Shown here piece by piece: positions 29,900 to 64,000 of a stretch of 64,000 bases of DNA. The DNA is from Mayamaea pseudoterrestris (lineage: Eukaryota): NCBI GenBank assembly GCA_027923505.1, contig BROI01000027.1, positions 124,001-188,000 on the forward strand. Reading direction: 5' to 3'. Made by a program: the position numbers and the translations under genes. Numbering within the stretch: position 1 is the stretch's first letter; each line of letters opens with the position of its first letter. The notes beneath the pieces were generated by a model that did no database searches, was not told where the DNA came from, and saw only the letters and a list, made by a program, of their open reading frames with translations.

Positions 29900-29973
29900 T
29901 AGTGTAGTGCCAAAAACTTTGAAAATCAAAGTTTTTGGCACTGTGGATCGTAGTGTAGTGCCAAAAACTTTGA
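29900..29973. repeat. 17-bp perfect inverted repeat (29906-29922 / 29926-29942) plus 23-bp direct repeat (29900-29922 / 29951-29973)
   Basis: AGTGCCAAAAACTTTGA-aaa-TCAAAGTTTTTGGCACT, and TAGTGTAGTGCCAAAAACTTTGA occurs twice. Confidence 0.93.
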
Positions 29974-30081
29974 TACCGCTGCGAGTCTTAATCGCCGACT
30001 GACGTCTCGGCAGGCCATCAAAGATTCGTCTCGTCGTCCCTGCTACTTCCACTTCCACTTGCAACCAGATCTGAGTCTGCT

Positions 30082-39500: not shown

Positions 39501-39676
39501 GCGTCACAGGGCAATAGTATGAAACGAGTGCCAGTGAAAACTACGTCATAAGGCAATATTGTGAAACGAGTGCCAGTGATAACAACGTCACAAGGCAATA
39601 CTACGAAACGAGTGCCAGTGAAAACTACGTCAGGAGGCAATATTAAGAAACAAGTGCCAGTGAAAACTACGTCACA
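39501..39676 (+). repeat. 42-bp tandem array A (4 units plus partial)
   Basis: Units start at 39501, 39543, 39585, 39627 and 39669. Consensus ACGTCA-NNR-GGCAATA-NTNN-GAAACRAGTGCCAGTG-AAAACT. Confidence 0.97.
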
Positions 39677-39791
39677 ATGCAACTTGAGGTGCGGTACCGC
39701 TACGATTAACCACGCCGGGTCGGTCTTGTGCGCGCGCGCTGGCGAGGCGCGTGGTCACGCAGTCGTTGGCGTTCATCGTCGCCTTCCCTCC

Positions 39792-41447
39792 ATGGTTCTT
39801 CGACGAAGTCATCCCTCGCCCGTCTTGCTTATTCTCATGGCGGCGTGGATCTCATTGCCAGTGTTCGTATCGTTGCTACTGTTGATTGTCATGGTATCGA
39901 TTGCGGCAGAAAAGATCGAGTACACTTTGGATGATTACAAGAATCGAAGCACGACGACAAGGACGACTGCAGCCGTTACTATTTGTTCCAAGCAGCTTCA
40001 TCATCATCCCCAAATGACAACGTCTTCCTCCATCAGCAGCAGCACGGATAGTAGTCGAAGCGATGGCGATGACGAAGATAGTATCAGTCCTGACAGCAAT
40101 AGCAAGAAGGAGCAACGCAAAACCAGCAAAGTACTGGCTGCCCTCTCGTTCGAACGCTTGCTTGGAAGTGGACGCAAGGAAAAGCCCAACGCCAAGAAGA
40201 GCCATTCACATTATAGTCGCCATTCACCAGAACGAAGCAGTCAGGAGCTATTTCCTCCAGCTAGTCTTCCAAATTCGCGGCAATATTCCTATCGAACAGC
40301 AGCAGCTCCTACAGTTTTGTTCGGGACGCTTGATCCGGACGACAACGAGGACGACGTATTCTTTGACGCGCAACAAAACGGCGACGCTTCCAAAGATTCC
40401 TTCAAAAGCGATTATGCGCGAGACTCTGTGCTACTACTGGCTAGCGTTGTTCCATCGTCGGCGGATAACGAGTCGATCGAAGTGTCCGTCGATGGAGTGA
40501 ATGATTGTGCGACAGCAAGCCGAAAAGATTCGCCAACTTGGATCAACTTGCGGGCTGGAGATTCGGTTTGCCATGGTAGTCATGTTGTGAATGGGGCTCC
40601 GCCGCCGCCTCCTCCGCCTACGCAGAAGCATCTACTACTCGCCGCCATTATTCCTTCACCTCCGGCGCCACCGGCGCAACTGCCGCTGCGCTTTCTACGA
40701 GCCGGCAAGGGCGATGCATCCGTCGGATATCAGCGCTACCAGGAAACCTTGGCGTGGCGTCGAGACAATGCCATTGACACGATTCTCCATCAACCTATGC
40801 CGGATTTTGCACTCATCAAGCAGCACTATCCTCATTTTTGTCATGGCACCGGCAAGCGTGGCGAGCCGTGCTTTTACGAGCAACCTCCCAAAACTAATTT
40901 AAAGGCGCTGCGAGAGGGCGGCGTGACGCTGGACAAGCTCCTTCGACACTACGCCATGGTTTCCGAGTATCAGTGGCAGTTTGTTTGTCGGGATGACTTG
41001 CAGCGAAGTATTTACATTATTGATTTGCAGGGAATTCGTATGGGTGACTTTGTCGGTGAAGTGGTTGATTTTGTCAAAAAGGCATCGGCACTATCGGCAA
41101 TGCATTATCCGGAGCGAGCAGGTAGCGTCTTTGTCATTAACGTTCCAAGCTGGTTTCGTTTCATTTGGTCGGTGGTCAAACCCTGGGTCGACGAATCGAC
41201 CCTGCAAAAGATTTTCATACTGCGCGGTGAAGCAGAGGTTCGCAACGCGCTCATGGAGCGCATTGAATTGGAGCACATTCCGACAGAGTATGGAGGCACT
41301 GGTGGAAGACTGGGCGAGTCACCGGAGGAAAAGACATTGTGGGAGTGGTCGCAGCATAATAACGCAATTGCGAATGGACAGCAGACTTGTGCTGGTGTGC
41401 AGGGAGGTTGCAGGTTTTGTACATGGTTGCCGCCAAGATCATACTAG
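39792..41447 (+). CDS. CRAL-TRIO/Sec14 lipid-transfer protein with N-terminal hydrophobic segment
   Basis: LPLRFLRA, TLAWRR, IYIIDLQGI, HYPERAGSVFVINVPSWF, VKPWVDESTLQKI and IPTEYGG. Start is uncertain (39792, 39837 or 40014). Confidence 0.9.
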   Translation: MVLRRSHPSPVLLILMAAWISLPVFVSLLLLIVMVSIAAEKIEYTLDDYKNRSTTTRTTAAVTICSKQLHHHPQMTTSSSISSSTDSSRSDGDDEDSISPDSNSKKEQRKTSKVLAALSFERLLGSGRKEKPNAKKSHSHYSRHSPERSSQELFPPASLPNSRQYSYRTAAAPTVLFGTLDPDDNEDDVFFDAQQNGDASKDSFKSDYARDSVLLLASVVPSSADNESIEVSVDGVNDCATASRKDSPTWINLRAGDSVCHGSHVVNGAPPPPPPPTQKHLLLAAIIPSPPAPPAQLPLRFLRAGKGDASVGYQRYQETLAWRRDNAIDTILHQPMPDFALIKQHYPHFCHGTGKRGEPCFYEQPPKTNLKALREGGVTLDKLLRHYAMVSEYQWQFVCRDDLQRSIYIIDLQGIRMGDFVGEVVDFVKKASALSAMHYPERAGSVFVINVPSWFRFIWSVVKPWVDESTLQKIFILRGEAEVRNALMERIELEHIPTEYGGTGGRLGESPEEKTLWEWSQHNNAIANGQQTCAGVQGGCRFCTWLPPRSY

Positions 41448-41652
41448 TAATGGTGAAACTGTCTATACAAAGGGAAGTGGCACTTGGCTTTTGCATTTAT
41501 AGATAGCAGCATGTTATTCTTCCTCCACAGTGTTGCGTATAGCAATTTTTGACTACAGCGACATCCTCTTTCAAGCTCATGATTAGCCAACCATAGTGCG
41601 CTTACAAAAGGCAGATAGTCGTTAGCTTAATCAATTCCCCCTCGATTGAGTT

Positions 41653-42501
41653 TCATTCTCGCTTAGCCTTTGGTAACTTGATGCTTTGAACATCGCTGTT
41701 GCTCAGCTTCTTCATGCGACCCTTGATGTTAATCGTCGTAATTTCAGCTTCGCGTCCGACCAGCCGGCCCTGTATGGTCTTGGGTTTTTGCGCCTTGTCA
41801 TCCATATACACAACAGAAACATCAAAGCCCTTGTATGAGTTGAATTGTCGAGCCGATAGACCGACGAGTTCATCGGATGCACCGGGTGTCGTGACTTCAA
41901 TCTCATGCGTTTCGGCAATGGAGGCGCCAAGTCCGTCGTCATTTAATGCGTCACTGACGGCTCGCGCTAGCATGGACAAGTCGACGATCTTGTTGCTGCT
42001 GCTAGATGAGTCATCGTAATCCATGTCAACGGCATCCAAATTATCGGCTTCATAGTCGTAATCCTCGCCATCCTCCGCCTCATCATACACGTCGGCGTCG
42101 TCGACTTTATCAAGATTCTCCATGTCATCGTCCGAATTGCCGTCGTCGTCGTCGTCTTCATCATATTCATCATAATATTCCTCGTTTGTAATTCCAACTT
42201 GCGTTTCGCCACTGACGGTAATGACAATTCGCCCCGGCTTCCACTTGATGTCAAGTTGGTCGACGCGAGCACCCACCATGAGCGCAGCGCGGGCAATGCA
42301 GTCGTTTCCATAGTCTTGATAGTTGGTGGGTAATGCAGCAAACAGTCTAGTCAAAGATTGAAAATGATGGTCTTTTGTGATGATATAGCTCGTCCTTGGC
42401 GATGGCCGATCGAAACGAGAAGGATAAGGTGCAAAGGAATCGACTGCGACAATCACCAGATGCAGAATTAATAGCGCCACGTCTATCCTTGACAGTCCCA
42501 T
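41653..42501 (-). CDS. rimP: Plastid ribosome maturation factor RimP-like
   Basis: Signal peptide ending VDS-FAP, then ARAVSDALND, HEIEVTTPG (RimP LEVSSPG), FNSYKGFDV and GRL, with an acidic insertion. Confidence 0.78.
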   Translation of the reverse strand: MGLSRIDVALLILHLVIVAVDSFAPYPSRFDRPSPRTSYIITKDHHFQSLTRLFAALPTNYQDYGNDCIARAALMVGARVDQLDIKWKPGRIVITVSGETQVGITNEEYYDEYDEDDDDDGNSDDDMENLDKVDDADVYDEAEDGEDYDYEADNLDAVDMDYDDSSSSSNKIVDLSMLARAVSDALNDDGLGASIAETHEIEVTTPGASDELVGLSARQFNSYKGFDVSVVYMDDKAQKPKTIQGRLVGREAEITTINIKGRMKKLSNSDVQSIKLPKAKRE

Positions 42502-42858
42502 TTCAAGCACTCGTTTTTTCGTCACTTGTCGCGAGTGTCGACGAATGATGATGGGTCTTGTGTCTTGTGGCTTGTGGATGTTGCTGACAGTGATGATGGT
42601 GGATGCCGTAAAATTCAAAAAGGTCGCAACGGTTTAGCTACCTGTCGTGAATGGCGGGAACCACATCAGACGCTGCGCTCGACCTGAAAGGTGATAGTAC
42701 CAATGCGCAAAGATACTCATTATAAGCACAGAGTTATGCTGGCTGAACTTCATGAGTCGCGTCTGCTTGATGGTATCTGCGCGGAGTGACGAGCTGGAAG
42801 ACCCATACCGATATTCCATTGCTCGAAGGTCATTACGTCTCTGGAGTTTCTAAAGCTT

Positions 42859-44274: not shown

Positions 44275-44602
44275 GGATGCATGAGAAGACGACTCAATGA
44301 TGCACTGGCTGTGAAAGTTGAGTCGAGAGCCGAGTAGAAAACGTTTGCGCTGTACTTTTTTGATCAGTGAATATAAAGATTGAGACTTTTGGAGTGTCAT
44401 TTTTGTTGGAAAAGTCGGAGATGACCGAAAATGAGGATCATCGCCAAAGAAAGAATTGAGAACCGGAACGACCTAGATTAGTACCGGAGAGACGAGCGTG
44501 GTTTCGACAAAAGTCGCGATCCAATAAGAAGATCCTACACCATGATGTGATTGATGCGGCCAGCAATTCTGCTCAAGTTCATCTCAATCATCGGCATTCA
44601 TA

Positions 44603-47600: not shown

Positions 47601-48536
47601 TGCGCGGATACGATAATTTTTCGTATGCGACCCGTTGGAAATGTTGTGGGCTAGACCAAGCAGCGCCTCCGGTTACGAAATGCCGGACTTCCTTTGTGAG
47701 TGACTCCGGCGACAAGCAAACGATAGAAACGAGCACCAAGTTTGATATACTATCAGCAGATTCGAAAAAGCTGCTGTTCAACGCCGAGACAACTTATTCG
47801 TTCCAAAGCGATGGTGCCGTGCAAGTGTCGTGTGAAGTTTCCCCCCGAGCAGCAGTTAAATGGTTATCCTCTTTGCCACGCATTGGCATCAATCTTCAGC
47901 TCAATGCATCGCTCTACCATATACAATACTTTGGAAGGGGACCAGACGAAAACTACCCAGATCGCAAGTCGGGCTCTGAGCTTGGTGTCTACGAGACGTC
48001 TCCTGCAAATATGGGATATTTGCAGTACGTATATCCAGTCGAAAACGGCTCCAGATCGGACTGCGAATGGATTGCGTTTCGACGCGATGACGGGACAGGG
48101 CTTTGTATTTGCACGGACGGGCCGACATTTTCGTGCAGTGCTCTGCTTCATAGTGCTACTGAGCTTGAGAATGCAACTCACACTTGCGATCTAGCGGAAC
48201 GAAAGGATGGGTATCATACAATCCATGTGAATTTAGATCATAAGCTCATGGGTGTGGGCGGCGACACGAGGTGCGTGCCATGCTTGGAGTGCCATACTTC
48301 GTGTTATGTTGAAAGCTTATTCCTCTCGCTCACACTAACCCATTTTCCGTTCTTGCAGTTGGTATCCAGTCGTCTATGAGCAATTCAGAGTGAAGCCATC
48401 GCAAGATTACAAATTTCGCTTTTGGCTGCTACCGCTAGAGCCAAACGACAATCCCGCCATGCTCACTCGCAGGTTTCGCAAAATTGGTAACCCGCCGCGA
48501 GCAGATTCTAGCACGCGTGGCTTTTACTTTAACTAG
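44603..48536 (+). CDS. Beta-galactosidase, glycoside hydrolase family 2 (LacZ-like); intron 48271-48358
   Basis: YTNIKYPF, EDQDHWWMAGIHRSV, GINRHE, NAVRTSHYP, WSLGNE (acid/base), CEYSHAMGN (nucleophile), GRGPDENYPDR and GVGGDTSW (spliced). Confidence 0.95.
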
Positions 48537-48562
48537 AACTAGCTATACTTAGCCAATTTACA

Positions 48563-49402
48563 CTATCTTTTTTCTGCCGCAACTACATAGTCAAACCCCA
48601 GCTGCAATCGACCCGATTGCTGCGTGGCTTCCAAAGCTTGCGCATCAAGCTCGTTCAGCGCTTGCGCCATGCCGTCGGCCAGATGGCTGTTACCAAACAG
48701 CTTGAGCTTGCTTCGTCCAACATTGACTTGCTTCAAAATAGTTTCGTATCGATAAAGGATTGGAAACTGAAAGGAATTCACAAGTTGCAGCGATTTGCAA
48801 TCGTTTACTTGCTGCTTGATCCATTCGAGGGGATACTCGCGGTAGCATCGATGATTGGCAAGTAGAATGCACGCATCGCGAGCCTGACGAACTTTGCAAA
48901 TGACGTTCGCTGGACCAGAAACCGAGTCTGGAATGGGTTCCAGTCCAACAATATACAAACGGCCTCCTGGTTTCAAGTATTGGCAGAGTAGCGGAATCAT
49001 TTCATTCTGTCGATAGGGACTGAAACCATCCATGGCACCAATAAGATAATCAGCCAAGATGACATCAAACTGCTGCTCGAGAGTCACTTGCTCCTTTGGA
49101 TCATTTGGAAACCAATTTCCAATCATGACTTGTCCCATTTCCGATACTCCCAACACTTCCGCCTCCATTTGCACCTGGCGTTGCATGGTGGCGTCGGCTG
49201 TCATGGCGCAAAAGTCCGTCAAGCCGCGACTCGACAAGGTGGCGAGCCAGCGGAGCGAGTGCATGCCAGTGCCGGCATCCAAGACGGACCCAAATGGAAT
49301 GTCTCCCTGTAGATTTTCAATGCATCCAAAGAGTGAATCGTCCTTGCCGTAAACGAGGCGAGCGGAGGCTTGTGCTTGTGGGGATGACGACTTGGCTGTC
49401 AT
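48563..49402 (-). CDS. Class I SAM-dependent methyltransferase-like protein
   Basis: VLDAGTG, FDVILADY and LKPGGRLYIVG. Confidence 0.82.
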   Translation of the reverse strand: MTAKSSSPQAQASARLVYGKDDSLFGCIENLQGDIPFGSVLDAGTGMHSLRWLATLSSRGLTDFCAMTADATMQRQVQMEAEVLGVSEMGQVMIGNWFPNDPKEQVTLEQQFDVILADYLIGAMDGFSPYRQNEMIPLLCQYLKPGGRLYIVGLEPIPDSVSGPANVICKVRQARDACILLANHRCYREYPLEWIKQQVNDCKSLQLVNSFQFPILYRYETILKQVNVGRSKLKLFGNSHLADGMAQALNELDAQALEATQQSGRLQLGFDYVVAAEKR

Positions 49403-49589
49403 GGCAAATATTAATGGCGCAGCACTAAACTGGATTGTATAAATTATAGTGGTCACTTGTCTTTTTAATCCTTTCATCAAGTAAGAATACGCGCCATTGA
49501 TAAGCCAAGACTTTAGGTGTACAAGGCAAACGAAGGTGATACATCTCGACCATCGTTTCGTCGCAAGACGATAGCGAAACGATTGTCAA

Positions 49590-49967
49590 TCATGACAAGG
49601 CAATAGTACGAAACGAGTGCCAGTGAAAACTACGTCATTAGGCAATACTGTAAAACGAGTGCCAGTGAAAACTACGTCAAAAGGCAATATTGCGAAACAA
49701 GTGCCAGTGAAAACTACGTCATTAGGCAATAGTATGAAACGAGTGCCAGTGATAACTACGTCACAAGCAGACGAAACGAGTGCCAGTGTCAAAACGTCAC
49801 AAGGCAATAATACGAAACGAGTGCCAGTGTCAATTACCTCATAAGGCAATAATACGAAACGAGTGCCAGTGTCAATTACGTCACAAGGCAATAGTACGAA
49901 ACGAGTGCCAGTGTCAATTACGTCGCAAGGCTTTAGTACGAAACGAGTGCCAGTGTCAATTACGTCA
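49590..49967 (+). repeat. 42-bp tandem array B (9 units plus partial; fifth unit is 36 bp)
   Basis: Units start at 49590, 49632, 49674, 49716, 49758, 49794, 49836, 49878, 49920 and 49962, with the same consensus as array A. Confidence 0.97.
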
Positions 49968-50042
49968 TGCTGCCCAGCTATCGCACCGTTGATTGCCATC
50001 ACCGCGTCGTCCATCGGCTCATCACTTTCTTTCGACCATGAG

Positions 50043-52088
50043 ATGATGAGGACGCATCATCGACGACGACTCTCCTTCCTATCATCAATCATTAGACATA
50101 TATACATGATTGGAATAATATCCAGTCAGTCGCGTGCTTTGGGATTTTCATTTAGAACGTCTCAAAGAACATTTTGGCGACAACAATGCCGACGAGCAAT
50201 CTTCTACTCGCATAATTCTCCTTCCGTGAACACTGATACGCCTATAACCCAAGCGACTCTTACAAGCAAAGACGAAACGTTTGAGTTTACGTCAACCGAG
50301 TTTGTCGAGCATATTGTCGTGCAGAAACAAAACGTTTCAGCCTGTGACATTATCGAAACGGTGCTGCAGCGTCGGCGCGATAATCAACTCACAGTCACTA
50401 ACCTGTCAGCCACGGAGCTCCTTCACATTGGAGCCGTTTGGTTTCTGCCGGCTCACATGCCCCGAGATCCGTCGTTGGGGCATAAGCCAATGCGTCTTGA
50501 GAAATCTCTCACGCTAAATGTTTCCGACTATCTACGCATTCATCATCATCCTCGGCGATTTCCAACCGTCTATGACTACGATTGGTCGCTCCACTGCAAT
50601 GAAACGACGAACCAAGATGCAAAGCAACTACCAGGAGTCATTGTCGCGCAAGACGAGACGAAAGGATATATCATTATTGACAAGCCAGCGGGCGTTCCGG
50701 TGCACATGACGGTGGACAATCGGCTGGAAAATGTTGCCGCGTGCTTGGCAAGTGCAAGGAGACGCTTGCTGGTTGACAACGACGACGGCCAAAGCAACGA
50801 TGTCTATGTGAGTACGCCGCAGCGACTCGATCAAAATACGTCCGGTTTGTTGGTGGTGGCATCGTCCAAGCCGTTTGCACACTATTTTGCCAATTTGCTG
50901 GCCCGCAAGACGGAGAATCAATTGGCTTCCAACAACAATTCCACTGTCACTGCTGACGAAACTCCAACTGAATCTATTCACAAGCTATACAAGTGCTTGG
51001 TTTGCCTTTCGCAACCATCTGCTGCTGCTACTACGGAAGGTGGTGGAACTGACAAGCAACAATCATGGTCGGTTCAGAAAGCTTATTCACAACTGCAGTC
51101 ATATCAACTTAAAAAAGTGCGACACTACTTGGAACCGTCCATTCGCTCGCCAAAGCGCTTTGTCGTACAACCACCAAGCAATGAAGCATGGCCGGAATGC
51201 TTGCTACGAATTCGCAACGTCGGTCCGTTGGGTGCATTGACTGGTAACGCTGCTGCGGCATCACTCCGAGCATCCTTGTGGGAGTCGCACGACTTGCCCC
51301 CAACTCATTGTCACGCTGTCGTGGAACTCGAGGTGGAGCTACTCACCGGTCGAACACATCAAATTCGCGGTCAACTTGCTGCCATGGGCTATAGCTTGGT
51401 CGGCGACGCGCAGTATGGAGGTGCAACGCCAGTGGATATGGAGTATGGAGTTCATGTATCGGCACCGAGATTGGCACTGCAGTGTTGTGAGCTGGAGTTT
51501 ATTGATCCAGATGTTCGACTAAAAGAAGACGGCACTGTGTATTTAACTCGGTCTCATAGGTGGAACAAGTTTCGAATTGAGGCGGCATGGTGGACTAGGG
51601 CCATGGAGGAATATCACTTGTCAATGCAGTCCTTGTCCAGCGATGAGGCGACCACTTTTGCTGATGATGCAGCGTTCGTTGCGTTAACCAATGGAACTCA
51701 GCAATCAACTAACCGAAAGATAGCTCGTCGAGACTTGCTTCCATCTCGTATCCAGCTATCTCCGGGCAAGAACAAGTACGTCCTTGTGAAGGCCACCCAT
51801 CCGGATGAGCGCGAGGAAGTCTGGTTTGTCAAGAGTGCTGCTCCAAATGAATGCGGCGGGCCATACCATGCGAATGTTGCCCAGGATTTGGGGGAATGGA
51901 TTACTGCTGCTGGTTATGACGCGGACGTTACTGGCGGAGGACGCATCGACTACCAACCAGACAGTAACAAAGCGGTTGTTTACGGGTTTAGTTACGGATA
52001 TGGCAAAGGCGACCACATGAAGGCGGCTAAACTCGTTAGTGAATGTGGAATTGATGCAAGCTACGACTACTCGGATGAATTGTATTAA
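50043..52088 (+). CDS. RluA-family pseudouridine synthase fused to a C-terminal Janus/Ocnus (PHPT1-like) domain
   Basis: IDKPAGVPVH, QRLDQNTSGL, LLTGRTHQIR and LVGDAQYG, then GKNKYVLV, YHANV, GGGRI and VYGFSYGYGKGDH. Confidence 0.88.
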   Translation: MMRTHHRRRLSFLSSIIRHIYMIGIISSQSRALGFSFRTSQRTFWRQQCRRAIFYSHNSPSVNTDTPITQATLTSKDETFEFTSTEFVEHIVVQKQNVSACDIIETVLQRRRDNQLTVTNLSATELLHIGAVWFLPAHMPRDPSLGHKPMRLEKSLTLNVSDYLRIHHHPRRFPTVYDYDWSLHCNETTNQDAKQLPGVIVAQDETKGYIIIDKPAGVPVHMTVDNRLENVAACLASARRRLLVDNDDGQSNDVYVSTPQRLDQNTSGLLVVASSKPFAHYFANLLARKTENQLASNNNSTVTADETPTESIHKLYKCLVCLSQPSAAATTEGGGTDKQQSWSVQKAYSQLQSYQLKKVRHYLEPSIRSPKRFVVQPPSNEAWPECLLRIRNVGPLGALTGNAAAASLRASLWESHDLPPTHCHAVVELEVELLTGRTHQIRGQLAAMGYSLVGDAQYGGATPVDMEYGVHVSAPRLALQCCELEFIDPDVRLKEDGTVYLTRSHRWNKFRIEAAWWTRAMEEYHLSMQSLSSDEATTFADDAAFVALTNGTQQSTNRKIARRDLLPSRIQLSPGKNKYVLVKATHPDEREEVWFVKSAAPNECGGPYHANVAQDLGEWITAAGYDADVTGGGRIDYQPDSNKAVVYGFSYGYGKGDHMKAAKLVSECGIDASYDYSDELY

Positions 52089-52119
52089 AATTTTTTTAAA
52101 AAACGCGATACTGATCTGC

Positions 52120-55100
52120 CTATGTGATGGATGCGTCGCTGGCGTCGTCCTTCGGACGTCTGTCGGAACCCTTCAACTCTGTCTGTTGTTGAGCGGCCAC
52201 ATGCTGATGGTATTTCTCGAGCCACAGATACTGGCGCTCTGTTCGCCGGTCGTAATCTTCATTGGGGTTGTTGTCACCCAAAAGGCTAACCTCAGGATCA
52301 AACGTGTTCATGTTTAGAATTCTCCGAAGTTCGGAAGAAAGCCCCATGCTCAATCCAGTGGCTGCAGTAACCCGACTTGCGGAACCCCTCAGCGAGGACT
52401 GGCTATGCGGTATTGCTGTTACACTTGATCTAAACTCTGGATGTTGCACGGACAATGAGTGTGGTAAGCTTGCGAACGGCAAATGCAAGTCGCTATTGCT
52501 TGCCGCATCGGGGTCAGTTTGCCCATGAACGTCTTTTATCGACTTCGGTAATAGCTGGGGCAACATCGCCGGTATGGAAGAATGGTCTTCCATTTTCGAT
52601 TCATGGAAAGAACCTGCGCCGCGAAATAGAACTCTTAAGCGTGGTATATGACCGTCACCAACCTCATATGACGACATCAGCTGCCTCTGTTCCAAATGCA
52701 CTAGCGTCTCGAGCTGCCGTGCTGCCGCTTCCACATGTAACTCTTGCTCTCTTGTCAAAGCAATTGTCTCATCTCGCTTGTATCTTTCTATACGATCAAT
52801 AAGTTGTTGACCTGATGCGGGACATTTCCACGTTGGATGCGTTGCCTAAAACGTGAGAAAGGGTACGAGTCAGTACGCAGGCACCAGCATTGCGAAATCC
52901 TGCAAGGACTCAGACTTACTTGAAAATTAAAAAAGCTCTTCTCCATTTTACCGAGGCGTGTCTTTGGTACCGGCAACAATCTACGAGCTTCGTCAACATT
53001 GCGAGTTCGAAGTACACTTTCCGACAACGAAAGTGACTGCGTCTCTGAACTGGTGGGCATCGCCATGGTCCTACCCTCCCAAGCCTCATCTTCGTATTTG
53101 TCGAAATCAAATGTGGCATAACCGCAAACTTCGCCAGCCCCAGCAAATTCACTCTTTGTCAGAAAAATGAACTCACAAATAGATTCTGCGCTTTGCGCAA
53201 GTGAAACGCAGAGAATGTACGGCGCTAAGAGCAATGATGCGATTTCCAAGACGAAGAGTTGAGCCTTGAATTGAATCATGGACTTGATTATCTTGTATGT
53301 CGTCTCATCATGAGCTCGACCTTTCCAATGAGGCATGTAATAGTGCGTATGAGTTGCAATGCCGGAAAGTGCTGCGTCAGTCTCCGCGTAAAGATTGCGG
53401 ATCCTTCGCGGTCTAATTTCTTCCGACGGCATCATTCCCTTGCCAACTGAATAAACAACACCGACCATGCCAGCAAACCACAAAAGATTCCAGTCGGCGA
53501 TTCTGACGTGCAGAAGAATCGCATCATTGATGGCGGCAAATACGAACAAAACTGCGCCCAGTGAGCCTCCGATGAAGACAAGAATGCGCCCACAAGCCGC
53601 AACGACTTCGCTCTGTCCAAACAACGCCAGATACTTCTCAGCTGCCTCATATGATGGATATAGTCGACTTTCAAAATGATGTTGCAGCTCGTTAAATTCT
53701 CTGAATAGCCATTTTGACGACAGCGACCATTCTCGCGGCCCAAGGTACTTTTTAGTTGATTTCCAGTCATAAGCATTTTGCAAACCAAAATGAAGCGTTG
53801 TAAAGAAAAGTAAAAAGGGAAGGAATGCCAAATGGACAACGCCACAAGCGATGAATCGCCGCCGAAGCGCGCCATGGTCGAGGTAAAAAGCTGGGCGGAT
53901 TTGGTACTTGTGATTGAACATGAAATTGAGTATGCAAAAGTACAGACTCCACTAAATTTTTAATAATTTGAGTTGATGCTGATGAGTAAAACGTCACAGC
54001 ATGGCTACGCACATTCCTCGTGTCGCTTACCTCCAAGCTGGAGCAGAAAAATACATGGTTGCCGAGCCTTGGGATTCGCAGATCGATAAGACCCTTGTTA
54101 AAAAGTGCGACCATAAAATTTTCTTTTCTCAAAATTCGTGTGGCAATCACCAATGCATCCAAGTCTTGTCCGTTAATGGCAATTCGATACTCGCCAGACT
54201 GCTGCAGCTCTAAAAGCTTATCAACAACATGAAGGTTCCAGTCGACGGCTCCTCCCTGCAGCTTGCGCGCACTTATCCCTAGCCGTTCCTCAAAGACAAA
54301 CTTGGCTAGCAGCGCTTGCCGAACGGTCTGTAGACATGACCAGGTTGCAAACGCCGCATAGAATAGAAATAAGGTGATGTAAAGGAGAATGACCAACAAG
54401 CTCCAAACACTGGAATAGTTGTAGAAAGGATCCTTGTGCAAGTAATCAACAAAATGGTCATGACAACTCGCTTCGTCGACGCAATTCGCCAAGGCTGGCC
54501 AGTCAACATAGACACACAAGAATACTGAAAGAAACAAGGTGAATAGCAGCGACACAAGCTGAACCACTCCCTTGCCAAGGATTGGAACGAGTCCCCGATG
54601 ATAGTAGTAGTAATACAGGCTCCCAAAGAACAGATCCAAATTAGCCACGGCGCCATAGTGTGACTCGGAGGAGAGTCGTGGCAAAAATATGAATTCATTC
54701 TCGCCGGCTTGCTGCTGTTGCTGCTGATTTCGTTCATTACTCGTCAGCGGGACGTACTCATTTCCATCTGCGGCAATTCCAAAGTCTCGTAAGTATGTAT
54801 GATCGGAATGATGAATCGCTCGTCGGCTACTGCTACTGTTCGAAGAAGAAGGATACAGTTCGTCTCGTAGCTGGCGCTCCTCATGTTCTCGCCAGGCATC
54901 CAGCGCGGCGTCATAGACAATATTACTAAAGCGCAAGGCTTCTTCTCGCGTTTGTTGATAGATTCGTCTCAGGAGTCCGAAACGCCGATGCGTCCAATGA
55001 TTATGCGGCATGGAGCTGTTGATAGATGCTGATTGCAAGGTTCGCGCATGATGCTGCTGGATTTCTCGCGACTGTTGATGACTCAACTCGTCCCAAAGAC

Positions 55101-55146
55101 CATCTTCTACGGTAGGAATGTGATTGTTGTTTATTGCGTCGTCCAT
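52120..55146 (-). CDS. ATG9: Autophagy protein 9; introns 53952-54030 and 52846-52919
   Basis: NLDLFFGSLYYYY, RILRKENFMVALFN, SSLEWSLYFCI (spliced), REWS, FREFNELQHHF, GEVCGYATFD and GKMEKSFFNF. Confidence 0.93.
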
Positions 55147-55524
55147 TAAGTTTGTTCAATCTATTTCTTTCGCTTTGCTAGTAGAGCGTTGTCGTCCCTG
55201 ATTCCCATGGTGACTTTTGTTCCCCGAAGCGAGGTTTTCGTGATGATGTCGCATCGCGGATCGGCAACCGCTGCGACTCTGTCACGCATGGTCACACAAC
55301 GAGAGATGCACCACCTCCAAATCTGATCACATTCCAACATCATGGTTCGAATTGCTAGGCACAAACAACGACCTGAGAATTGGAAGGGTCTCATCTCCCG
55401 TATCGTTACATTTTCTTCTGGCGAAAAGTATCGAATTAGCAACATATTTCAAAGCATTCGCCATTCGCCCCCTGCTACAGTGGTACAGTAGAACGAGCAG
55501 CTGGCATACAACTAAAAAATGGCG

Positions 55525-56270
55525 AAGATAATGGCTGGCGCACAATACCGTGTTTGCTGGTTACGGTGGCTTTAGAGAAGAAAGAGCATGCCAAGTTGAA
55601 TTCCTTGGGCAGTGCTCCATACTTTGCCCAGGTTCGTCAGGATGAGCTCATTGCCGCCATGTCAAAGATCAAATCCAACCTCTTCTTCATCGACCTGGCG
55701 GCCAATCACGCGCGCAAACTGAGTAACACGGCAGCTCTTGAGCTTTATCACAACTAGAATGGCCTTTGCTTCGAACCAAACCCAATTTACTTTACGACTT
55801 GAGCCGCGTCCGGACTTGTCGAGTAGTTGCCGCGGTCGTTGGAAACACGCGCAACGAAAAGGTACTTCAATTTCGGCGTGGAGTCTATGAAGGATTCGCC
55901 GACGCTGGATTCGACAACAAGAAAGACATGCGGAACCAAAGCTCGCCCGTTTATACGGTGCCGCTGCTGGAAGTTTGGAGCGTCATTTTGTTCCTCGAGT
56001 GATTGACTATTTGAGTCTAGATGTGGAAAGGGAAAGCTTTATCATGACGAATTTTCCATTGGACCGCTACAAGATTAAAATAATTACAGCGGAGCGCTTC
56101 AAGGGTGACATTAGCTCTACTTGAATCAGCGAGGATACGAAATGGTGCAACAGTTGGCTGACTGGGACGAAACGCTGTGCGTGCACTCTGAGTATGAGAT
56201 TGAGCTTGACATACGTGCTATTGCAAGGCTTTCGTTCCCGATCAGATGGCAAGATGCCAGGAAAGGATGA
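55525..56270 (+). pseudogene. FkbM-family (Methyltransf_21) methyltransferase pseudogene
   Basis: Pieces in different frames: QVRQDE, FFIDLAANHA..SNT, *NGLCFEPNP (TAG at 55755), VVAAVVG, IDYLSLDVE and GYEMV..DWDETL. At least one nonsense codon and three frameshifts. Confidence 0.82.
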
Positions 56271-56621
56271 AATAGTACGTACAAAGCTGGAAATGTAAGA
56301 GTAGGAGAGCTGAATGGCTCGGGTAAAAACGTCACCTGACTACGCTTGGATTGCTACAATCCATGCAGCACTTTTAAAGACGCTTGCGTAACAAACTATA
56401 AGGTTTGACATACATTAGTTGCTCACAACAGTCCCCTGATCATACACAAAATTGATGTCGCTTCAGACCTATCTAGACCGCTGCGACACCGACGTAAATC
56501 GCATTCGCCACAATGAGATGACGACGAATGCGTTTGTTTTGATCAAATCTAACATCAGAAGAACCAAGCTAGGCTATAAAACACATAAAGGCTATAGAGT
56601 GCTTACTCCTTAACTTCCAAA

Positions 56622-59498
56622 ATGCCTCAAAAGATTCTTTTACTTCACGGAAATCGCCAGACTGGACAGGTTCTTTTGGGTCGAATGGAACGACTCCGCA
56701 AAAAGCTGCTGGCAGTTGGTTTGGAACTGGTGGCACCAGACGCCTTATTTCCGCATCCAGAGGATGTAGCCGTGAGGCAGTGGTGGAATCGAGTCGATAA
56801 TGCCTATTTGGATCTTGATGTGACGCTGCAGCAGATTGCATCAATATGGATGAGTGCAAAAGCAGCATCGTCATCATCAACCCCCAATCATCAAGATGAA
56901 CATGCTTTTGTTGGTGTCATGGGGTTCTCCATGGGAGCTCGGCTTGCACATTTGCTTGCAGTCGCTCATTCTCGTGATCCAAATGGTTTCCTTCAAGGAT
57001 TGCAGTTTGTCATAATGGTGGCGGGCTACGATGCGCCCTTGCCGGATGGCTTTGATCAAATGTTTGCTCCAACAATCACAGACAACTTCGTTTCAAGCGC
57101 GCAGTCTCAATCATTACTTATTCAAATTCCAAGCCTCCATGTTTATGGGGAGACGGATCGACTAATAGAGCCGGCATTATCGCAAGCAGTCATGAACCAC
57201 TACGAGCACGCCGAGTCGCACGTTCATGCGGGCGGCCACCACGTTCCCATGCAAGCGGAAAGCACCAAGGTATATCTGGATTTCATTGATCGCTGCCGCA
57301 ATGCTAGCGTGGAAGCAAAACGTTTAGCTACGATGCAGCAGCTTGGCAAGTCTCCATCTACAGGTAGTTTAGCTGGAGGAAGATTGGCGTCGCAGCAACA
57401 AGCAGCGCGGTCTTCACAGTCTACACCAGCCGCATCCGCAATTCTTGAACCAGAGCCCGACGACGAAACCAAGCAGATTCAAACGGATGAAGTTGAGGCA
57501 CTGACTGCCATTTTCCCAGAGGAAGTGACGCTGCTGTCGAAACACTCGGCGACAGAAGGGACTTTCGAGTCACCCATTCAGTACACCGTTGATTTGACAC
57601 GCTCAGATATTGGCACATGGCCACCTCGTCCATTGAAAATACAATTCACATATCCTTACAACTATCCAGAAACTGCTATTCCAAAAATAAAACTTATTCA
57701 TGACATGAACGTTATGGAGTTTTCCTATGGCGCCGCCAATGCTTGTATCGCGAAAATGGAGGAGGCAGCGCAAGCCGAGCAAGTCATGCCGTCGGTAATG
57801 TCGTGCATTTATGCTGCTCGAGACTTTTTCGAATCTGATGGCATGCTGCAGTATGCAAAAAATCAAGTGGATGATGCTGTAGAGCAAGCGGAAAATGGCG
57901 AGGGCGAAGTATTGAATCTTTCGAATGCTGCCATTATTCCTGCTTCACCCGAACGGATAGAAGAATGCACATTACGAGGCTTGTCCATTGCCGAATCACT
58001 CCTCCGACTCAACACAGCACCAGACATTAAAGAAACAGATTGCGCCACTGGAAAAGGAGGCTCCTGGGTGTACACGATTGGACTGGTCGGAAAGCCATCC
58101 GCTGGCAAGTCCACCTTTTTCAACGCTGCGACGGCTTTTGCAAGGCAACGCGACGACCACGAGAACGCACTAGGCGGAGCAGCTATGGCACCGCATCCCT
58201 TTACAACAATTGATCCAAACACTGGCTGCGCGCTCGTGCCAGCGCCATTCGGATCATGCCCCGAAGATGATTTTGATTCATTACAAAACGGGCTTACCAT
58301 TGGCAACACGCACGGACGGGATATGAATGGTCGTCGATTGATACCGGTGCTATTAAAGGATGTCGCTGGACTAGTTCCTGGTGCATATCAAGGTCGTGGT
58401 CGCGGAAACAAATTTTTGAACGACTTGTGCGATGCGGATGTCCTCATTCACGTCATGGATGCAAGCGGTACGGCGGACACGGAAGGAAACCACGTTGGCG
58501 TGGAGGAGGATGGAATGACTCCTTGCTCCGGAGCCTCTAATCCGCTTAAGGATCTTGCTTGGATTCGCAAGGAGTTGATTGAGTGGGTCTACACCAATTT
58601 GCTTGTAAAATGGGACACAATCAAGCGTAAAGGAAGGTCCAAACTAGAAGCAATGTTTAATGGCTACGGACAAAAGTCTGCAGTGACTTGGAGCATACTT
58701 AACGCCGTTGAAAAGGAGATGGAACGCATTGGCCAACGCGAGAAGCCTTTAAACTGCCTTGACGAGTGGGATGAAGGAGACGTCCACTTGCTCGTTTCAG
58801 CCTTTCTGGGCGTTCGATTTCCTATGGTGCTGGCCTTGAACAAGTGCGACTTGCCATCAAGTCGAGCATACATTGACGAAATTCTAACTGCCTTGCCTGC
58901 CCATGGAGCACATATTGGAGTTCCAGTGTGTGCTAGAGAAGAAATGAGTTTCATAAAGGAGACGATTCAAGCGGCTATAGAAGGTTCTAGATATTCACTA
59001 AAGTACGAGAAACGCGGCGAACCACCCGTGGGTGTATGGCAGTGCCTCCAATCGGCACTTACCTTAAAAGAGCCGGTTCTCGTCTTTCCTGTGGCAGATT
59101 TTGTCAACTTTGCTCCGCTTCCGGGACTATCGGATCATGTGACAAGCGATGCGTCCTTGCCGCGCCCAGGCATGATTGCTTGCCTTGAAAAGGCAGGTGG
59201 GAGCGTTCCATCATCCTGGGATACAGCGACTGACGCGTACTCCTCTGATCTTATCAAGAAACGCCCCGTCGCACTTCGCGATGTCCTCATCATGAAGCCG
59301 GGGTCAACAATCGAAGACGTCTTTTTAACCCTGAAACGCCCTGGCGCCGTCGGCGGCGAATTCATCCGAGCAGAAGCGAGCGGAAGCATCTCCGAGCCCC
59401 CAAAACCAATTCCAAAACACGAAGTTGTATCCAAGGCGACGCGAATTGTGAAAATCATGACATCAAAACGTTCATCTTGGCAAGCAAGCTACAAGTGA
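56622..59498 (+). CDS. FSH1 serine hydrolase + RWD domain + Obg-family GTPase (YGR210C/YchF-related) fusion
   Basis: LLLHGNRQ, GFSMGA, HVYGETD and GGHHVP; EVEALTAIFP and YPYNYP; GKPSAGKST, PFTTIDPN, DVAGLVPGA and NKCD. Confidence 0.9.
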   Translation: MPQKILLLHGNRQTGQVLLGRMERLRKKLLAVGLELVAPDALFPHPEDVAVRQWWNRVDNAYLDLDVTLQQIASIWMSAKAASSSSTPNHQDEHAFVGVMGFSMGARLAHLLAVAHSRDPNGFLQGLQFVIMVAGYDAPLPDGFDQMFAPTITDNFVSSAQSQSLLIQIPSLHVYGETDRLIEPALSQAVMNHYEHAESHVHAGGHHVPMQAESTKVYLDFIDRCRNASVEAKRLATMQQLGKSPSTGSLAGGRLASQQQAARSSQSTPAASAILEPEPDDETKQIQTDEVEALTAIFPEEVTLLSKHSATEGTFESPIQYTVDLTRSDIGTWPPRPLKIQFTYPYNYPETAIPKIKLIHDMNVMEFSYGAANACIAKMEEAAQAEQVMPSVMSCIYAARDFFESDGMLQYAKNQVDDAVEQAENGEGEVLNLSNAAIIPASPERIEECTLRGLSIAESLLRLNTAPDIKETDCATGKGGSWVYTIGLVGKPSAGKSTFFNAATAFARQRDDHENALGGAAMAPHPFTTIDPNTGCALVPAPFGSCPEDDFDSLQNGLTIGNTHGRDMNGRRLIPVLLKDVAGLVPGAYQGRGRGNKFLNDLCDADVLIHVMDASGTADTEGNHVGVEEDGMTPCSGASNPLKDLAWIRKELIEWVYTNLLVKWDTIKRKGRSKLEAMFNGYGQKSAVTWSILNAVEKEMERIGQREKPLNCLDEWDEGDVHLLVSAFLGVRFPMVLALNKCDLPSSRAYIDEILTALPAHGAHIGVPVCAREEMSFIKETIQAAIEGSRYSLKYEKRGEPPVGVWQCLQSALTLKEPVLVFPVADFVNFAPLPGLSDHVTSDASLPRPGMIACLEKAGGSVPSSWDTATDAYSSDLIKKRPVALRDVLIMKPGSTIEDVFLTLKRPGAVGGEFIRAEASGSISEPPKPIPKHEVVSKATRIVKIMTSKRSSWQASYK

Positions 59499-60644
59499 CG
59501 AACCCAGCGAACTGTTGACTTGTTCGCGTCGGTTTCTTGAGATTCCTTTTCAGCGACTTTTGCTGGGCGACGCTTTGGAAAAAGGAAGCCACGGTTCTTT
59601 TGCGTTTTGACAGGCTTGACGTTGACTTCTACGGCCATGCCCGGTGGTATCGTCTGCAGCTGGTAGTCGCCGTAGGCGATGCGAATCAGCCGCGTCACAT
59701 CCACTGAGAATGGAACGGTCAAAAAGCAATTGAGTTAGTATTGACAGTGGTTCAGATTAGCAACTACTGCCTGTCAAATAACAAAAGCATCTCCACTACT
59801 AATACGTACAACCCATTTGCGAAAAGACTTTACGTATCTGTCGATTCTTTCCTTCTGCACACGTGACTTGAAGCCACTTGTTACTCGCCGCTTGGCTTCG
59901 GCGTCCACCACTAGCACTGTCCATTCGCACCTTCATGGGCGCGTATCGAACGCCATCAATCGTCAATCCCTTGGCAATCTGCGCTAGTTTATAGTCGGTG
60001 ACGTTGCCATGCGCGCGGACCCGATAGACGCGATGCACCAAGCTTGATGGGAGCTCCAATTGCCGAGCATAGTTGCCATCATTGGTCAGTAGTATCAAGC
60101 CTTCGGTTGGTAAATCGAGACGTCCGACTGGCTTCAAGTGAAGCTTGGTGTGTTTGCCAATCTTGCCGACGCCGCCTCGCGCCATGCGCTGCATGAGCGA
60201 GGGCCGTCCCAGCGGGTCGGAATCGCTGACAATTTCCCCCGCTAGCTTATGGGCGAGCCAAACGCGAGTCGTCGGCTTGTCCTGCTCCTGCTGCTTCATA
60301 GATAAATTTGTCTTAGTAGTATTTCCGTCATTGACATTCACAACCTTGCCCAACACTTGCAGTGCACTATTTTGCACACTTCCATTTGCCACCAAAATTT
60401 GCGGCGACGTTACGATTTTGCCAGCCAGCGTCACTTCGCCGTTCTTAATAAGACGTTCCGCCTCTCGCCGACTCATGTGCGCGTGCTCGGCAATGAGTTT
60501 GGACAGTCGATGCGTGTTGGCAGCGACGACACCCTGTTGATCAATGCTGCCGCCGCCGAGGGAAGCGGGCGAGGACGACAGTGACGACGTCAATCTGACG
60601 CCAAATCTTTTGTGAAATGATCGGAAGGTAAGACTAGTATTCAT
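59489..60644 (-). CDS. RsuA/RluB-family pseudouridine synthase with S4 domain; intron 59704-59809
   Basis: RLSKLIA..SRREAERLI, VGRLDLPTEGLILLTNDG, EGKNRQIRK and VTRLIRIAYG. Confidence 0.92.
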
Positions 60645-60967
60645 GTGACTAAAAGTTTGGAGCTAAAGCGCGTGGAGAAGGTAGATAGAAGCTGCGAATT
60701 TGTTGCCATGGCGTCGCTCGGCAGGGCGGTGGTCCACAGATGAAGTCGTTCCGGTTCTCTTAAACGTCGCTCCGGTTGTCACTACTGGAATGTTGCTATC
60801 TCATCTTGTCCAGAAGCGAAAAGTGCACTGTTGCTGCATCACTCAGGCCAGCTCGAGCAATGCAGAAACATATGTAACTTTGGGTTCCTTTAAAGCTAAA
60901 CTACCGGTACGTGGCATCACATACTCGGATGCCATGCTGTATAAAAACTGGCGTAACAGTCCTCGGT

Positions 60968-62109
60968 CTACAATATCTCGAAGGGACGAGCCTTTGGTGA
61001 TTCCGAAACACGTTTCGCTTCAATTTTCGTATTCCCTGTAGCATTTCGCTTTCCTAGAGTAGCTTGGCTTGTTTTCGTTACCTTTGCAAACGTCGCCGAG
61101 CCCATTTGATCAAAGCCATTCCTGACACATTCAGGTGGTACTAAACCTTGAATCTGGCCAGCCCTTTCCGACAGTGCTTGCTGTTTACGAGTTCGTGCTT
61201 GTGTCACTTTCGGCAAGGCTTGCAAAACAATGAAGCGAATGCTCGCAAAGTCTTCCAACTGGCGGCAGTACTTTCGAACCTCATCGTTGGTAATGTACGA
61301 GTTTGAACCATCCTCGGCAAGAGTCTGGGGTCCAAACGAGCAGTAGACCTCCTCCTGAGAAAATGAAATATTTGATAAGAAACATGCATTAGTTATGCAT
61401 GTCTATCTCCGCATTTTTTCCTTAAACTGACCTGATTCAGTTGCTTGCCAAGTACGCCTTGCATGATTCTGCGATCTATATTCTGAGTTCCTTTCCACAA
61501 AGCAATATCGTTTAACTGAATCTTGCGCAGAAATGAGATGTTATAATGCTTCAGAAGCACATCTTGGCAAATAAGAACCTCTTTGAAACAGTGCAAGCAG
61601 AATGGGAGATATATCTGTGCATCTGGCCCAACAACATCCAGTGTCGCAAATGAAACCAAGGAACTCTCAAAGAATGACCGCGACCAGTGCTGACGATCCC
61701 ATCCAGTGGGAATCCAAAAGTAATCAAGTAGCACCTGGTCGAACGTCACGCCCGAAAAGTGGTCCTTGAGCGACGCGACAAACTTTCGATGATTAAAGTC
61801 TCCTTCATAGTGACGATCGGATCGATAGATCGCTCCCTTTTCTCGCGACACAGTATACACATCAGCTTTGCAGACTCGCTCCGTCTCAACAATACGAGCG
61901 AGATCTCGCCCATCCATTTCCGTCAAAAGTCCTCGCTGCACACTGGCGACGGCGTTGCATAGTTCAGCGGATGCGTAGGACGGCAGTACTGATTCATTCT
62001 CATTCTCAACCAGATCCGAAAGATCTTTTCCCATACTAGCAAGTTGGTCTTGCACATTGGCGTAGGAAACGCCCAAGCAAAGGACCTTTTTGCGTGGACG
62101 AGGCGCCAT
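60968..62109 (-). CDS. Hypothetical protein; intron 61355-61431
   Basis: Globular-looking ORF from MAPRPRKK (ATG 62109). A phase-0 GT-AG intron joins it to the 60968-61258 frame. No family recognised. Confidence 0.72.
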
Positions 62110-62173
62110 GGTGGCATTTACTAGTATGCATCCGACGATTATTTTTACGGCTCGACGACTCATGCAGTAAATT

Positions 62174-62434
62174 ACGTCACGAGGCAATAGTACGAAACGA
62201 GTGCCAGTGAAAACTACGTCATAAGGCAATACTATGAAACGAAAGCCAGTGAAAACTACGTCATAAGGCAATAGTACGAAACAAGTGCCAGTGTCAATTA
62301 CGTCATTAGGCATTAGTACGAAACAAGTGCCAGTGTCAATTACGTCACAAGGCAATAGTGTGAAACAAGTGCCAGTGTCAATTACGTCACAAGGCAATAG
62401 TGTGAAACGAGTGCCAGTGTCAATTACGTCACAA
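62174..62434 (+). repeat. 42-bp tandem array C (6 units plus partial)
   Basis: Units start at 62174, 62216, 62258, 62300, 62342, 62384 and 62426, with the same consensus as arrays A and B. Confidence 0.97.
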
Positions 62435-62566
62435 TCTGCATCTTGGAATTCGCTCGAACTGCGCCGGTTCCATCTCATTCGAACGCGATACATTTTCCAT
62501 TCCTCTGATCAAACTTCGAGCACAATGTCCGAAACTATTACTACAAACCCTATATCATAATAAAAC

Positions 62567-63744: not shown

Positions 63745-63820
63745 AAAGACTGACGCGCTGGAAATTGCATGTAAGCCAATTAGAGAAACAATCATATACG
63801 TAGTCAATAGACAACCATAG

Positions 63821-64000
63821 CTAATACATTGGAGAAAGGAAAAGAGGGCGTTGTAGGTGAAAAGCTTGCTCAAAGTGACTCGTCCAGTTGATCCATTGGC
63901 AACCTTCCTTTTTCGCCGAAGCCTTGTTTACGCCAATCGTCCAGTGTCTTGCCTTACACGTAGAATTCCGACCCGATATTAGCTTGGCCAATAAACCAAA
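63821..64000 (-). CDS. Possible 3' end of a gene entering from beyond the window
   Basis: Stop-free 60-codon frame from the window edge to TAG, convergent with the ADH gene. No motif recognised. Confidence 0.3.
   Translation of the reverse strand, partial: FGLLAKLISGRNSTCKARHWTIGVNKASAKKEGCQWINWTSHFEQAFHLQRPLFLSPMY

Follow-up and report, generated by a model that had tools for sequence, protein, structure and literature searches.

Short arrays of a 42-bp unit between genes of Mayamaea pseudoterrestris may well belong to a dispersed satellite family without a transposon carrier

The 64,000-nucleotide window analysed here (positions 124,001 to 188,000 of contig BROI01000027.1 from Mayamaea pseudoterrestris) contains three tandem arrays of a 42-bp unit. 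We favour, with a probability of about 0.55, the view that these arrays represent a lineage-restricted minisatellite or satellite family that has no transposon carrier and is scattered across gene-rich DNA in short arrays, and that any effect on neighbouring genes is incidental unless shown. As in satellites, the monomers are non-coding, of fixed length and arranged head-to-tail; the family is abundant and has many loci (their number being approximate) with short arrays near genes (three of three here); and the arrays have variants in common, together with a decayed monomer at one edge. With roughly 10^3 units per genome, the family is an abundant repeat of an ordinary kind and, apparently, a satellite family undescribed in print.

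Array 1 (39501..39677, + strand) comprises four units, all of the AAAACT type including one ATAAC variant, and runs from a GCGTCA to a closing ACGTCA followed by CAA. Array 2 (49590..49967, +) comprises four AAAACT-type and then five TCAATT-type units, and its closing ACGTCA lies at 49962-49967. It is extended leftwards by a decayed lead unit (about 49558..49589, +) that starts at a degenerate ACGTCA box and is identical to a unit in 27 of 35 aligned columns. Array 3 (62170..62434, +) comprises two AAAACT-type and then four TCAATT-type units, again closing with ACGTCA and CAA, such that an extra ACGTCA box closes every one of the three arrays. Arrays 2 and 3 have the same order of unit types, for which a structured master element is one possible source. 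TRF gave a period of 42 and copy numbers of 4.3, 9.0 and 6.3, and the repeats of all three arrays are far beyond chance. The period and the counts of 4, 9 and 6 in the first-pass annotation are thus upheld, except that array 2 has nine units rather than nine full ones, since one is 37 bp and another 41 bp long (the fifth and sixth core spacings, respectively). The arrays lie 10-12 kb apart. A 16-base core, allowing at most two mismatches, occurs 19 times in the window, always on the + strand and within the arrays, leaving the first 39 kb without an array; likewise, a profile search of the masked window found no further member of the family (best E 0.87).

All three arrays lie between head-to-head genes, and for the pairs named in the first-pass annotation (F-box/Sec14, methyltransferase/RluA and hypothetical/ADH), Pfam confirms F-box-like/transglutaminase-like, CRAL-TRIO, pseudouridine synthase plus Ocnus, and ADH. 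Array 1 is flanked on the left by an F-box-like/transglutaminase-like gene (38132..39388, -), whose ORF is open to an earlier ATG at 39448 and whose likely ATG is 113 bp from the array, and on the right by a CRAL-TRIO (Sec14) gene (39792..41447, +). To the left of array 2 is a conserved SAM-methyltransferase-like gene (48563..49402, -; homologues at most 75% identical) with no Pfam match of its own and with 'SAM-dependent methyltransferase' as the source name in 3 of the 120 homologues listed; to its right, a pseudouridine synthase of the RluA type is fused to a Janus/Ocnus domain (50043..52088, +). Array 3 separates the first exon of a hypothetical gene (61393..62109, -; likely ATG at 62109), whose ORF remains open upstream, through the array, to 62493, from a zinc alcohol dehydrogenase gene (62567..63900, end approximate, +; intron at about 63051-63117). 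One sequencing run, X4, looks RNA-like, in that it skips the ADH intron and has uneven depth. Its contigs do not extend as far as arrays 2 and 3, and values in its array bins are low; it is a single contig set, silent on absence or level.

In the reference unit (49878..49919, +), positions 1-6 are the ACGTCA box, which reads TGACGT on the minus strand; GGCAATA occupies 10-16, GAAAC 21-25 and AGTGCCAGTG 27-36. Across 18 units, 22 of the 42 positions are invariant, while positions 7, 8, 17, 19, 20, 26, 37, 38 and 41 vary recurrently, and the variable sites carry two to four shared alleles. The number of differing positions per pair of these units is 6.39 within arrays (49 pairs) and 6.37 between them (104 pairs), a difference reached by 2,507 of 5,000 permutations, and each of the ten variable-site pairs has all four combinations. 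Because units from different arrays resemble one another as much as units of the same array do, and their variants are shuffled, the arrays draw on a common pool. The nearest neighbour lies solely in another array for seven of the ten AAAACT-type units and in the same array for all eight TCAATT-type units, the latter indicating that local expansion operates too. The CpG of the ACGTCA box is deaminated in none of 17 cases, compared with 12 of 35 for the other two CpGs of the unit, a contrast that may be ancestry since the units are not independent. Protein binding or selection, on the one hand, and neutrality, on the other, account equally well for an intact box CpG and 22 invariant positions.

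Abundance was judged from contig records of two DNA-like runs, X1 and X2, which share alleles and hence are not independent, placed on a 15.5-kb stretch. There were 2,657 and 2,049 such records, respectively, with 1,778 and 1,348 fitting two places. Summed depth in the array bins reached 57,618 (X1) and 10,975 (X2), compared with about 122 and 37 in single-copy DNA; overlap corrections of 2-10 give an estimate of ~600-4,400 units per genome, which is rough because summed depth is not a copy number. Multi-contig loose ends with long flanks agree poorly (0.49-0.69 in X1), so their flanks differ between loci. Array 2 is present on both alleles, with a second-allele contig in X1 and X2 covering the first part of the lead unit and passing into intact units at a joint at 49576, and none of the best 15 of 36 joint rows skips an array. 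The arrays had also been described as all having the same orientation. All three are on the + strand here (p 0.25), but a fixed orientation is doubtful, since the genome has a unit junction on the opposite strand at another place (X1 summed depth 545).

Metagenome, viral and prokaryotic collections yielded no relative. A 24-base unit pattern had no matches in metagenomes, and the 16-base core had 38 single matches and no tandem in viral contigs. A two-core 42-bp pattern occurred in at least 120 prokaryotic stretches and in 104 viral ones; of the 33 bases between their cores, 15 at most agree with a unit, making these stretches unrelated to it. A further run, X6, amounts to a small share at depth 2-3 with near-identical pieces and is not an independent relative. 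Among 80 of 103 confirmed loci with homologues of the methyltransferase gene (382 kb kept), none had the unit, none had an RluA gene upstream and one had a downstream beta-galactosidase; lacking the upstream RluA gene, these loci are uninformative for an empty-site comparison.

The arrays had been described as mobile or self-amplifying, dispersed, and free of transposase, terminal repeats, shared flanks or clear target duplications, and the analysis supports this. Thirteen of 15 flank pairs score inside the intergenic null, and the remaining two (p 0.005 and 0.047, uncorrected) reflect a 14-bp match and a gappy match, both off the array ends. No TIR or common TSD was found at the three arrays, where a search for the ends of a MITE or DNA transposon returned solely 4-7-bp matches that differ at each locus. 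Short inverted repeats of 5-7 bp across the array ends were dropped as candidates, the one at array 2 lying inside the decayed lead unit. The array ends themselves have a common feature: in all three arrays, an ACGTCA-type box lies no more than about 4 bases from the start, and the end comes 0-3 bases past such a box. Among the best 24 of 308 junction rows, 11 of the 12 loose-end rows listed for X1 and X2 fall at unit phases 42-8, putting the best-supported junctions elsewhere at the box as well; a clipping simulation places about 25% of random ends at these phases, although the clipping of alignments itself favours a few peaks, phases 6 and 42 among them. In head-to-head gaps free of arrays, the excess of ACGTCA is only weak (6 of its 41 occurrences; p 0.059; rank 94 among 2,077 hexamers).

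We propose that a run of units would be copied from another array, either by reintegration of an extrachromosomal circle or by template-switch repair, into a place where a few bases of microhomology are available, in most cases an ACGTCA/TGACGT hexamer that is already there. Copying at such a hexamer would leave n units plus one extra box. Slippage might then lengthen some runs locally, as in the TCAATT runs, and interlocus gene conversion would keep the variants shuffled. We saw no empty site and can therefore only infer that insertion takes place at a pre-existing ACGTCA.

The same model would have arrays tolerated in promoter gaps and surviving mostly in head-to-head gaps, as these are the largest non-coding spaces of a compact genome. 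Head-to-head gaps make up 13 of the 33 gaps in the window and 55% of its intergenic DNA, and the earlier claim that arrays sit only between divergent genes is therefore unproven: three of three are so placed, with p of 0.05-0.5 depending on the null (0.16 by length, 0.05 by gap count, and 0.32-0.49 among promoter-holding gaps). That arrays occupy bidirectional promoters holds for these three, which are 65-190 bp away from the likely start codon on either side, but not as an enrichment. Once their arrays are subtracted, the three gaps are short, at about 196-260 bp, whereas 10 other head-to-head gaps have a median of 332 (p 0.04, a post hoc value based on approximate gene models).

The alternative that survives best, although we consider it unlikely, is that the arrays are co-opted regulatory cassettes. 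Each unit would bring a predicted TGACGT site to bZIP factors, such as aureochromes or CO2/cAMP regulators of the bZIP11 type, and arrays of 5-10 sites would act on both flanking promoters and be kept by selection. TGACGT is the aureochrome box (PMC4937327, excerpt) and TGACGT/C the target of PtbZIP11 (PMC11142338, excerpt). The intact box CpG beside decay at the unit's other two, the proximity to both start codons, the shortness of the three gaps and the presence of array 2 on both alleles are all consistent with such a role. The manner in which it would work is illustrated by the MITE-derived m1m2 promoters of CERP2/CELE2 in Caenorhabditis, bound by HIM-17, where a repeat-borne motif was seeded into many promoters (PMC9757741, excerpt); those, however, are inverted-repeat MITEs with shown binding and promoter activity, whereas here there is no TIR and the site is a candidate. 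Further arguing against cassettes, the six neighbouring genes have no evident common pathway, head-to-head enrichment is not significant, and the unit is absent from the 80 methyltransferase-homologue loci, although these are distant and lack synteny around the gap in question. Moreover, the PtCA1-type response is tied to motifs on both strands in PMC11142338, and the arrays have them on one.

We rank lower, as doubtful, the possibility that the arrays are internal repeats of a non-autonomous transposon of the Helitron/HLE2, MITE or Crypton type, whose ends would be very short or decayed here. Helitron/HLE elements have shared non-repeat termini, with a CTRR end and a hairpin. Shared termini of this kind were absent from the 100-bp flanks of the three arrays; a CTRR-then-T end was found within 100 bp of neither array 1 nor array 2, and the three matches near array 3 are unshared. 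The unshared flanks, the lack of a TIR or common TSD and the differing flanks of the multi-contig loose ends point the same way. A tyrosine-recombinase site of the Crypton or lox-like type has inverted binding arms around a 6-8-bp spacer. An array of such sites was rejected, as the dyad symmetry that a recombinase site would need is within that of shuffled units (reached by 281 and 394 of 2,000). Conversely, defined array ends and the A-then-T order would suit a master element, and the opposite-strand junction also fits a transposon. Dispersed short arrays with fewer than 10 monomers often belong to Helitron-type elements, as in the internal tandem repeats of Helitrons/Helentrons in Crassostrea gigas (PMC10048060, excerpt), but the three 42-bp arrays have no shared element ends around them.

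Two further alternatives are very improbable. The arrays could be structured or processed small-RNA arrays, or could add a translated 14-residue repeat to neighbouring proteins: an imperfect hairpin can be drawn from the unit, at all three arrays its two stop-free frames match the phase of the left and right neighbours (6 of 6 cases in the window sequence), and array 3 yields an ATG-started in-frame fusion ORF. However, Rfam gave no matches, folding z-scores range from -2.0 to +1.0 for eight dimers (-1.6 and -1.3 for array 3), and hairpin symmetry does not exceed that of shuffles, leaving the small-RNA array of the first-pass annotation unsupported. Nor does the coding version fare better. Five of the six phase relations lack an ATG-started fusion, and variants are mostly non-synonymous in both open frames, with no synonymous bias (synonymous to non-synonymous 5 to 21, and 4 to 21 plus one new stop). 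No homologous proteins were found among 1.84 billion representatives, the 54 matches being at most 46% identical and the top ones inspected being unrelated repeat proteins with a period of about 13 residues. A resemblance between the translated unit and an aspartic-protease motif had no Pfam support. Equally remote is a structural cis-element (an iteron-like replication origin, a boundary, or a dispersed centromere or chromatin anchor), for which one may cite the 10-12 kb spacing, a unit of four helical turns and variable blocks about every 10 bp (7-8, 17-20, 26, 37-41), as if one helix face were constrained, and against which stand the array-free first 39 kb and a composition profile with no skew switch tied to arrays. 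A sigma-70 promoter scan found nothing, its model not being applicable to a eukaryote.

The carrier-less satellite that we prefer has counterparts among known systems. Satellites of the 1.688 and Rsp-like kinds have monomers much longer than 42 bp. These also form short arrays near genes with variants common to distant loci, and have recurring microhomology junctions for which eccDNA and interlocus conversion, without a transposon carrier, have been proposed (PMC7403614, excerpt). The family described here differs in its 42-bp monomer, its compact diatom genome and a junction box that is itself a known transcription-factor site, and it is known from contigs. The Cast1-Cast9 satellites of Tribolium castaneum likewise form arrays in gene-rich regions and undergo interlocus exchange, with eccDNA insertion as one route, but include long arrays and one family tied to transposon-like elements (PMC11610590, excerpt), in contrast to arrays of 4-10 units with no associated element at the three loci. 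In plant SIRC cassettes, which are dispersed CRISPR-like repeat-spacer arrays, conserved blocks also alternate with variable positions (10.64898/2026.03.27.714674, excerpt), whereas the variable positions of our 18 units are few shared single-base alleles rather than diverse spacers. The first-pass annotation had not recognised the element as a described one. This stands for the family, as we found no paper describing it and no published satellite family in the host's group, but not for the kind, since short satellite arrays near genes are known in animals. The genome paper of the host species lists 0 satellites and 7.36% unclassified repeats.

The family offers a countable test case for the spread of tandem repeats without a transposon, because short arrays whose junctions can be read are expected to number in the hundreds. 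Should their ends prove to be phased at a transcription-factor box and the arrays alter expression, a host cis-element would here be both targeted and amplified by a satellite. A long shot, going further, is that a self-spreading, carrier-less minisatellite homes to TGACGT (bZIP/aureochrome) boxes already present in promoters and multiplies them there, so that hundreds of head-to-head gene pairs would come under a common input responding to light or CO2. If true, it would constitute regulatory rewiring by a satellite instead of a transposon.

The first-pass annotation reported three arrays of a 42-bp repeat, and all three were recovered at 39501..39677, 49590..49967 and 62170..62434 on the plus strand (arrays 1, 2 and 3), where core-based splitting yields 4, 9 and 6 units, respectively. 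Array 2 has two aberrant core spacings (37 and 41 bp); every other spacing is 42 bp. A decayed unit, identical in 27 of 35 columns, lies ahead of array 2 at about 49558-49589. At ≤2 mismatches the core is confined to the arrays within the window, and searching the masked window with a profile identified no further family member (best E 0.87). Across 18 units, with the 37-bp unit of array 2 excluded, 22 of the 42 positions never change and nine show recurrent variation. Each array consists of n units plus one additional ACGTCA box, the hexamer at unit positions 1-6, and arrays 2 and 3 share the order of end variants, AAAACT-type followed by TCAATT-type.

Mean unit difference was 6.39 positions within arrays versus 6.37 between arrays, and all four combinations were seen for each of the 10 pairs of main variable sites. 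For 7 of 10 AAAACT-type units the nearest neighbour lies solely in another array, and all eight TCAATT-type units have a nearest neighbour in their own. Together, these comparisons show that the arrays did not each expand from a single founder unit but are samples from a common, recombining pool of units, with some local expansion.

Contigs from four sequencing runs (X1, X2, X4 and X6) were aligned to 48400-63900, part of which is contained in six of seven runs. Because X1 and X2 have long contigs with even coverage across this stretch and alleles in common, we counted them as one genome. They contributed 2,657 and 2,049 aligned contig records, with summed depths in array bins of 57,618 and 10,975 versus about 122 and 37 elsewhere. 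The depth ratio, with contig-overlap factors of 2-10, gives an estimate of about 600-4,400 units per genome; as depth is not a copy number, we claim only an abundance of the order of 10^3. A second-allele contig reaches array units after 49184-49576 (43 differences and 36 gap letters there) and another contig enters array 2 from the right side; array 2 is therefore present on both alleles and older than their divergence. No empty allele was found among the 15 of 36 joints listed. Allelic divergence is high around array 2 (48400-50533; 9 differences in 325 bp, in addition to 49184-49576) and far lower over the 2,596 bp of 59607-62202, which hold a single difference. In X1 as well as X2, the contig matching the allele of the window carries 5 extra bases at 49536, a possible sign of an assembly error or allele mosaic in the window. 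A contig in X1 and X4 omits 286 bases of the ADH gene (63296-63583), with unknown sequence between, and is probably a paralogue.

The arrays are flanked by head-to-head genes from unrelated families, as had been claimed, and the gene set of the window and its homologues are of diatom character. Two genes have composite architectures, each in a single ORF: an RluA-type pseudouridine synthase with a C-terminal Janus/Ocnus domain (50043-52088), and an FSH1 serine hydrolase joined to an RWD domain and MMR_HSR1 GTPase (56622-59498). Approximate models for 34 genes give 33 gaps. The 13 head-to-head ones account for 55% of the intergenic DNA, and very little space separates convergent genes. While 3/3 arrays occupy head-to-head gaps, the proposed exclusiveness of this placement is unproven: p is 0.16 for a length-based null, 0.05 for one based on gap count, and 0.32-0.49 when the null is limited to promoter-holding gaps. 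Their common orientation likewise holds for 3/3 arrays here (p 0.25), but an opposite-strand unit junction occurs elsewhere in the genome. After subtraction of the arrays the three gaps are short (p 0.04, post hoc), a weak hint of function. Another head-to-head gap, flanked by a gene of the histidine-phosphatase family and one with a phosphoribosyltransferase domain, contains at 29841-29974 a 17-18-bp motif in three perfect copies of alternating orientation (29906-29922, 29925-29942 and 29957-29974), preceded by two partial copies. This motif has AGTGCCA in common with the 42-bp unit, yet the profile of the unit does not pick it up.

On the minus strand the ACGTCA box reads TGACGT, the sequence of the aureochrome box (PMC4937327) and of the PtbZIP11 CO2/cAMP target (PMC11142338). 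With an edge unit and one transversion left out, deaminations were seen at 0/17 box CpGs versus 12/35 at the other two CpGs of the unit (nominal p 0.005, the units not being independent). The hexamer is about twofold over-represented in array-free head-to-head gaps, non-significantly (6/41, p 0.059). Both observations are compatible with an insertion target and with a bound site, and prove neither. If functional, the arrays would act like the CERP2/CELE2-derived promoters (PMC9757741), without being a MITE. We consider it improbable, at roughly one chance in eight, that the family homes to promoters and rewires them.

The absence of carrier signs was borne out: a MITE and a Helitron-carried repeat both failed, with no TIR or common TSD at the three arrays and no shared Helitron-type end in their 100-bp flanks. 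These flanks contain no convincing common sequence (13 of 15 pairs inside the null, the other two exceeding it through short internal matches). A SIRC/CRISPR-like repeat failed its test. The idea of a small-RNA array, or of a structured-RNA repeat, gained no support, with 0 Rfam matches and folding z-scores of -2.0 to +1.0, not clearly beyond shuffles; unit dyad symmetry was equalled in 14-20% of shuffles. A coding repeat also failed, as variation in both stop-free frames is mostly non-synonymous and no protein with the repeat was found among 1.84 billion representatives (54 weak matches, ≤46% identity; the 10 inspected were unrelated repeats). Among these matches, P0121, P0123, P0126, P0128 and P0132 are large proteins, almost without Pfam assignment, whose long C-terminal runs of a ~13-residue beta-type repeat look like an uncatalogued family unrelated to the 42-bp unit. 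At the three arrays (39388-62567) these stop-free frames of the unit match the reading phase of the two flanking genes in 6/6 cases in the window sequence (nominal p 0.0014), or 5/6 (p 0.018) should the 5-base insertion at 49536 be right; no mechanism was found. As this count is post hoc and an ATG-started fusion ORF exists at array 3 only, we provisionally treated the phase as chance.

The unit had no match in metagenomes, and viral and prokaryotic contigs gave chance or unrelated matches only. It is absent from 80 loci of homologues of the methyltransferase beside array 2, with no close relative among the data compared, and the family is likely restricted to this lineage. At one of these metagenome loci (L040:7280-8701), a beta-galactosidase gene is convergent to the methyltransferase-like gene, the same arrangement as in the window. 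In the M. pseudoterrestris genome paper, 'tandem' and 'satellite' are absent from the main text and supplement table S3 gives 0 satellites. The view that this is not a described element stands insofar as no diatom description was found, most subscription papers and repeat databases lying outside the coverage. The family is real, abundant and, as far as searched, undescribed.

In testable features the arrays resemble the short arrays of euchromatic satellites in Drosophila and Tribolium (PMC7403614, PMC11610590 and PMC10048060). For Rsp-like satellites, PMC7403614 proposes microhomology, eccDNA reintegration and interlocus conversion, and the ends of the 42-bp arrays match the junction signatures it describes. 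Of the 12 loose ends among rows listed for X1 and X2, which are not independent, 11 fall at unit phases 42-8, around the ACGTCA box; at the twelfth (phase 36) unit sequence carries on up to the box. Simulated random ends with alignment clipping fall there in about 25% of cases, the peaks of clipped ends including phases 6 and 42, and X4 and X6 have such ends in 2/6 rows listed (24 of 308 rows in all, picked by support). Collectively, these data provide moderate evidence that array ends are phased around the ACGTCA box, and it is this phasing at a known transcription-factor box that would set the 42-bp family above a plain satellite.
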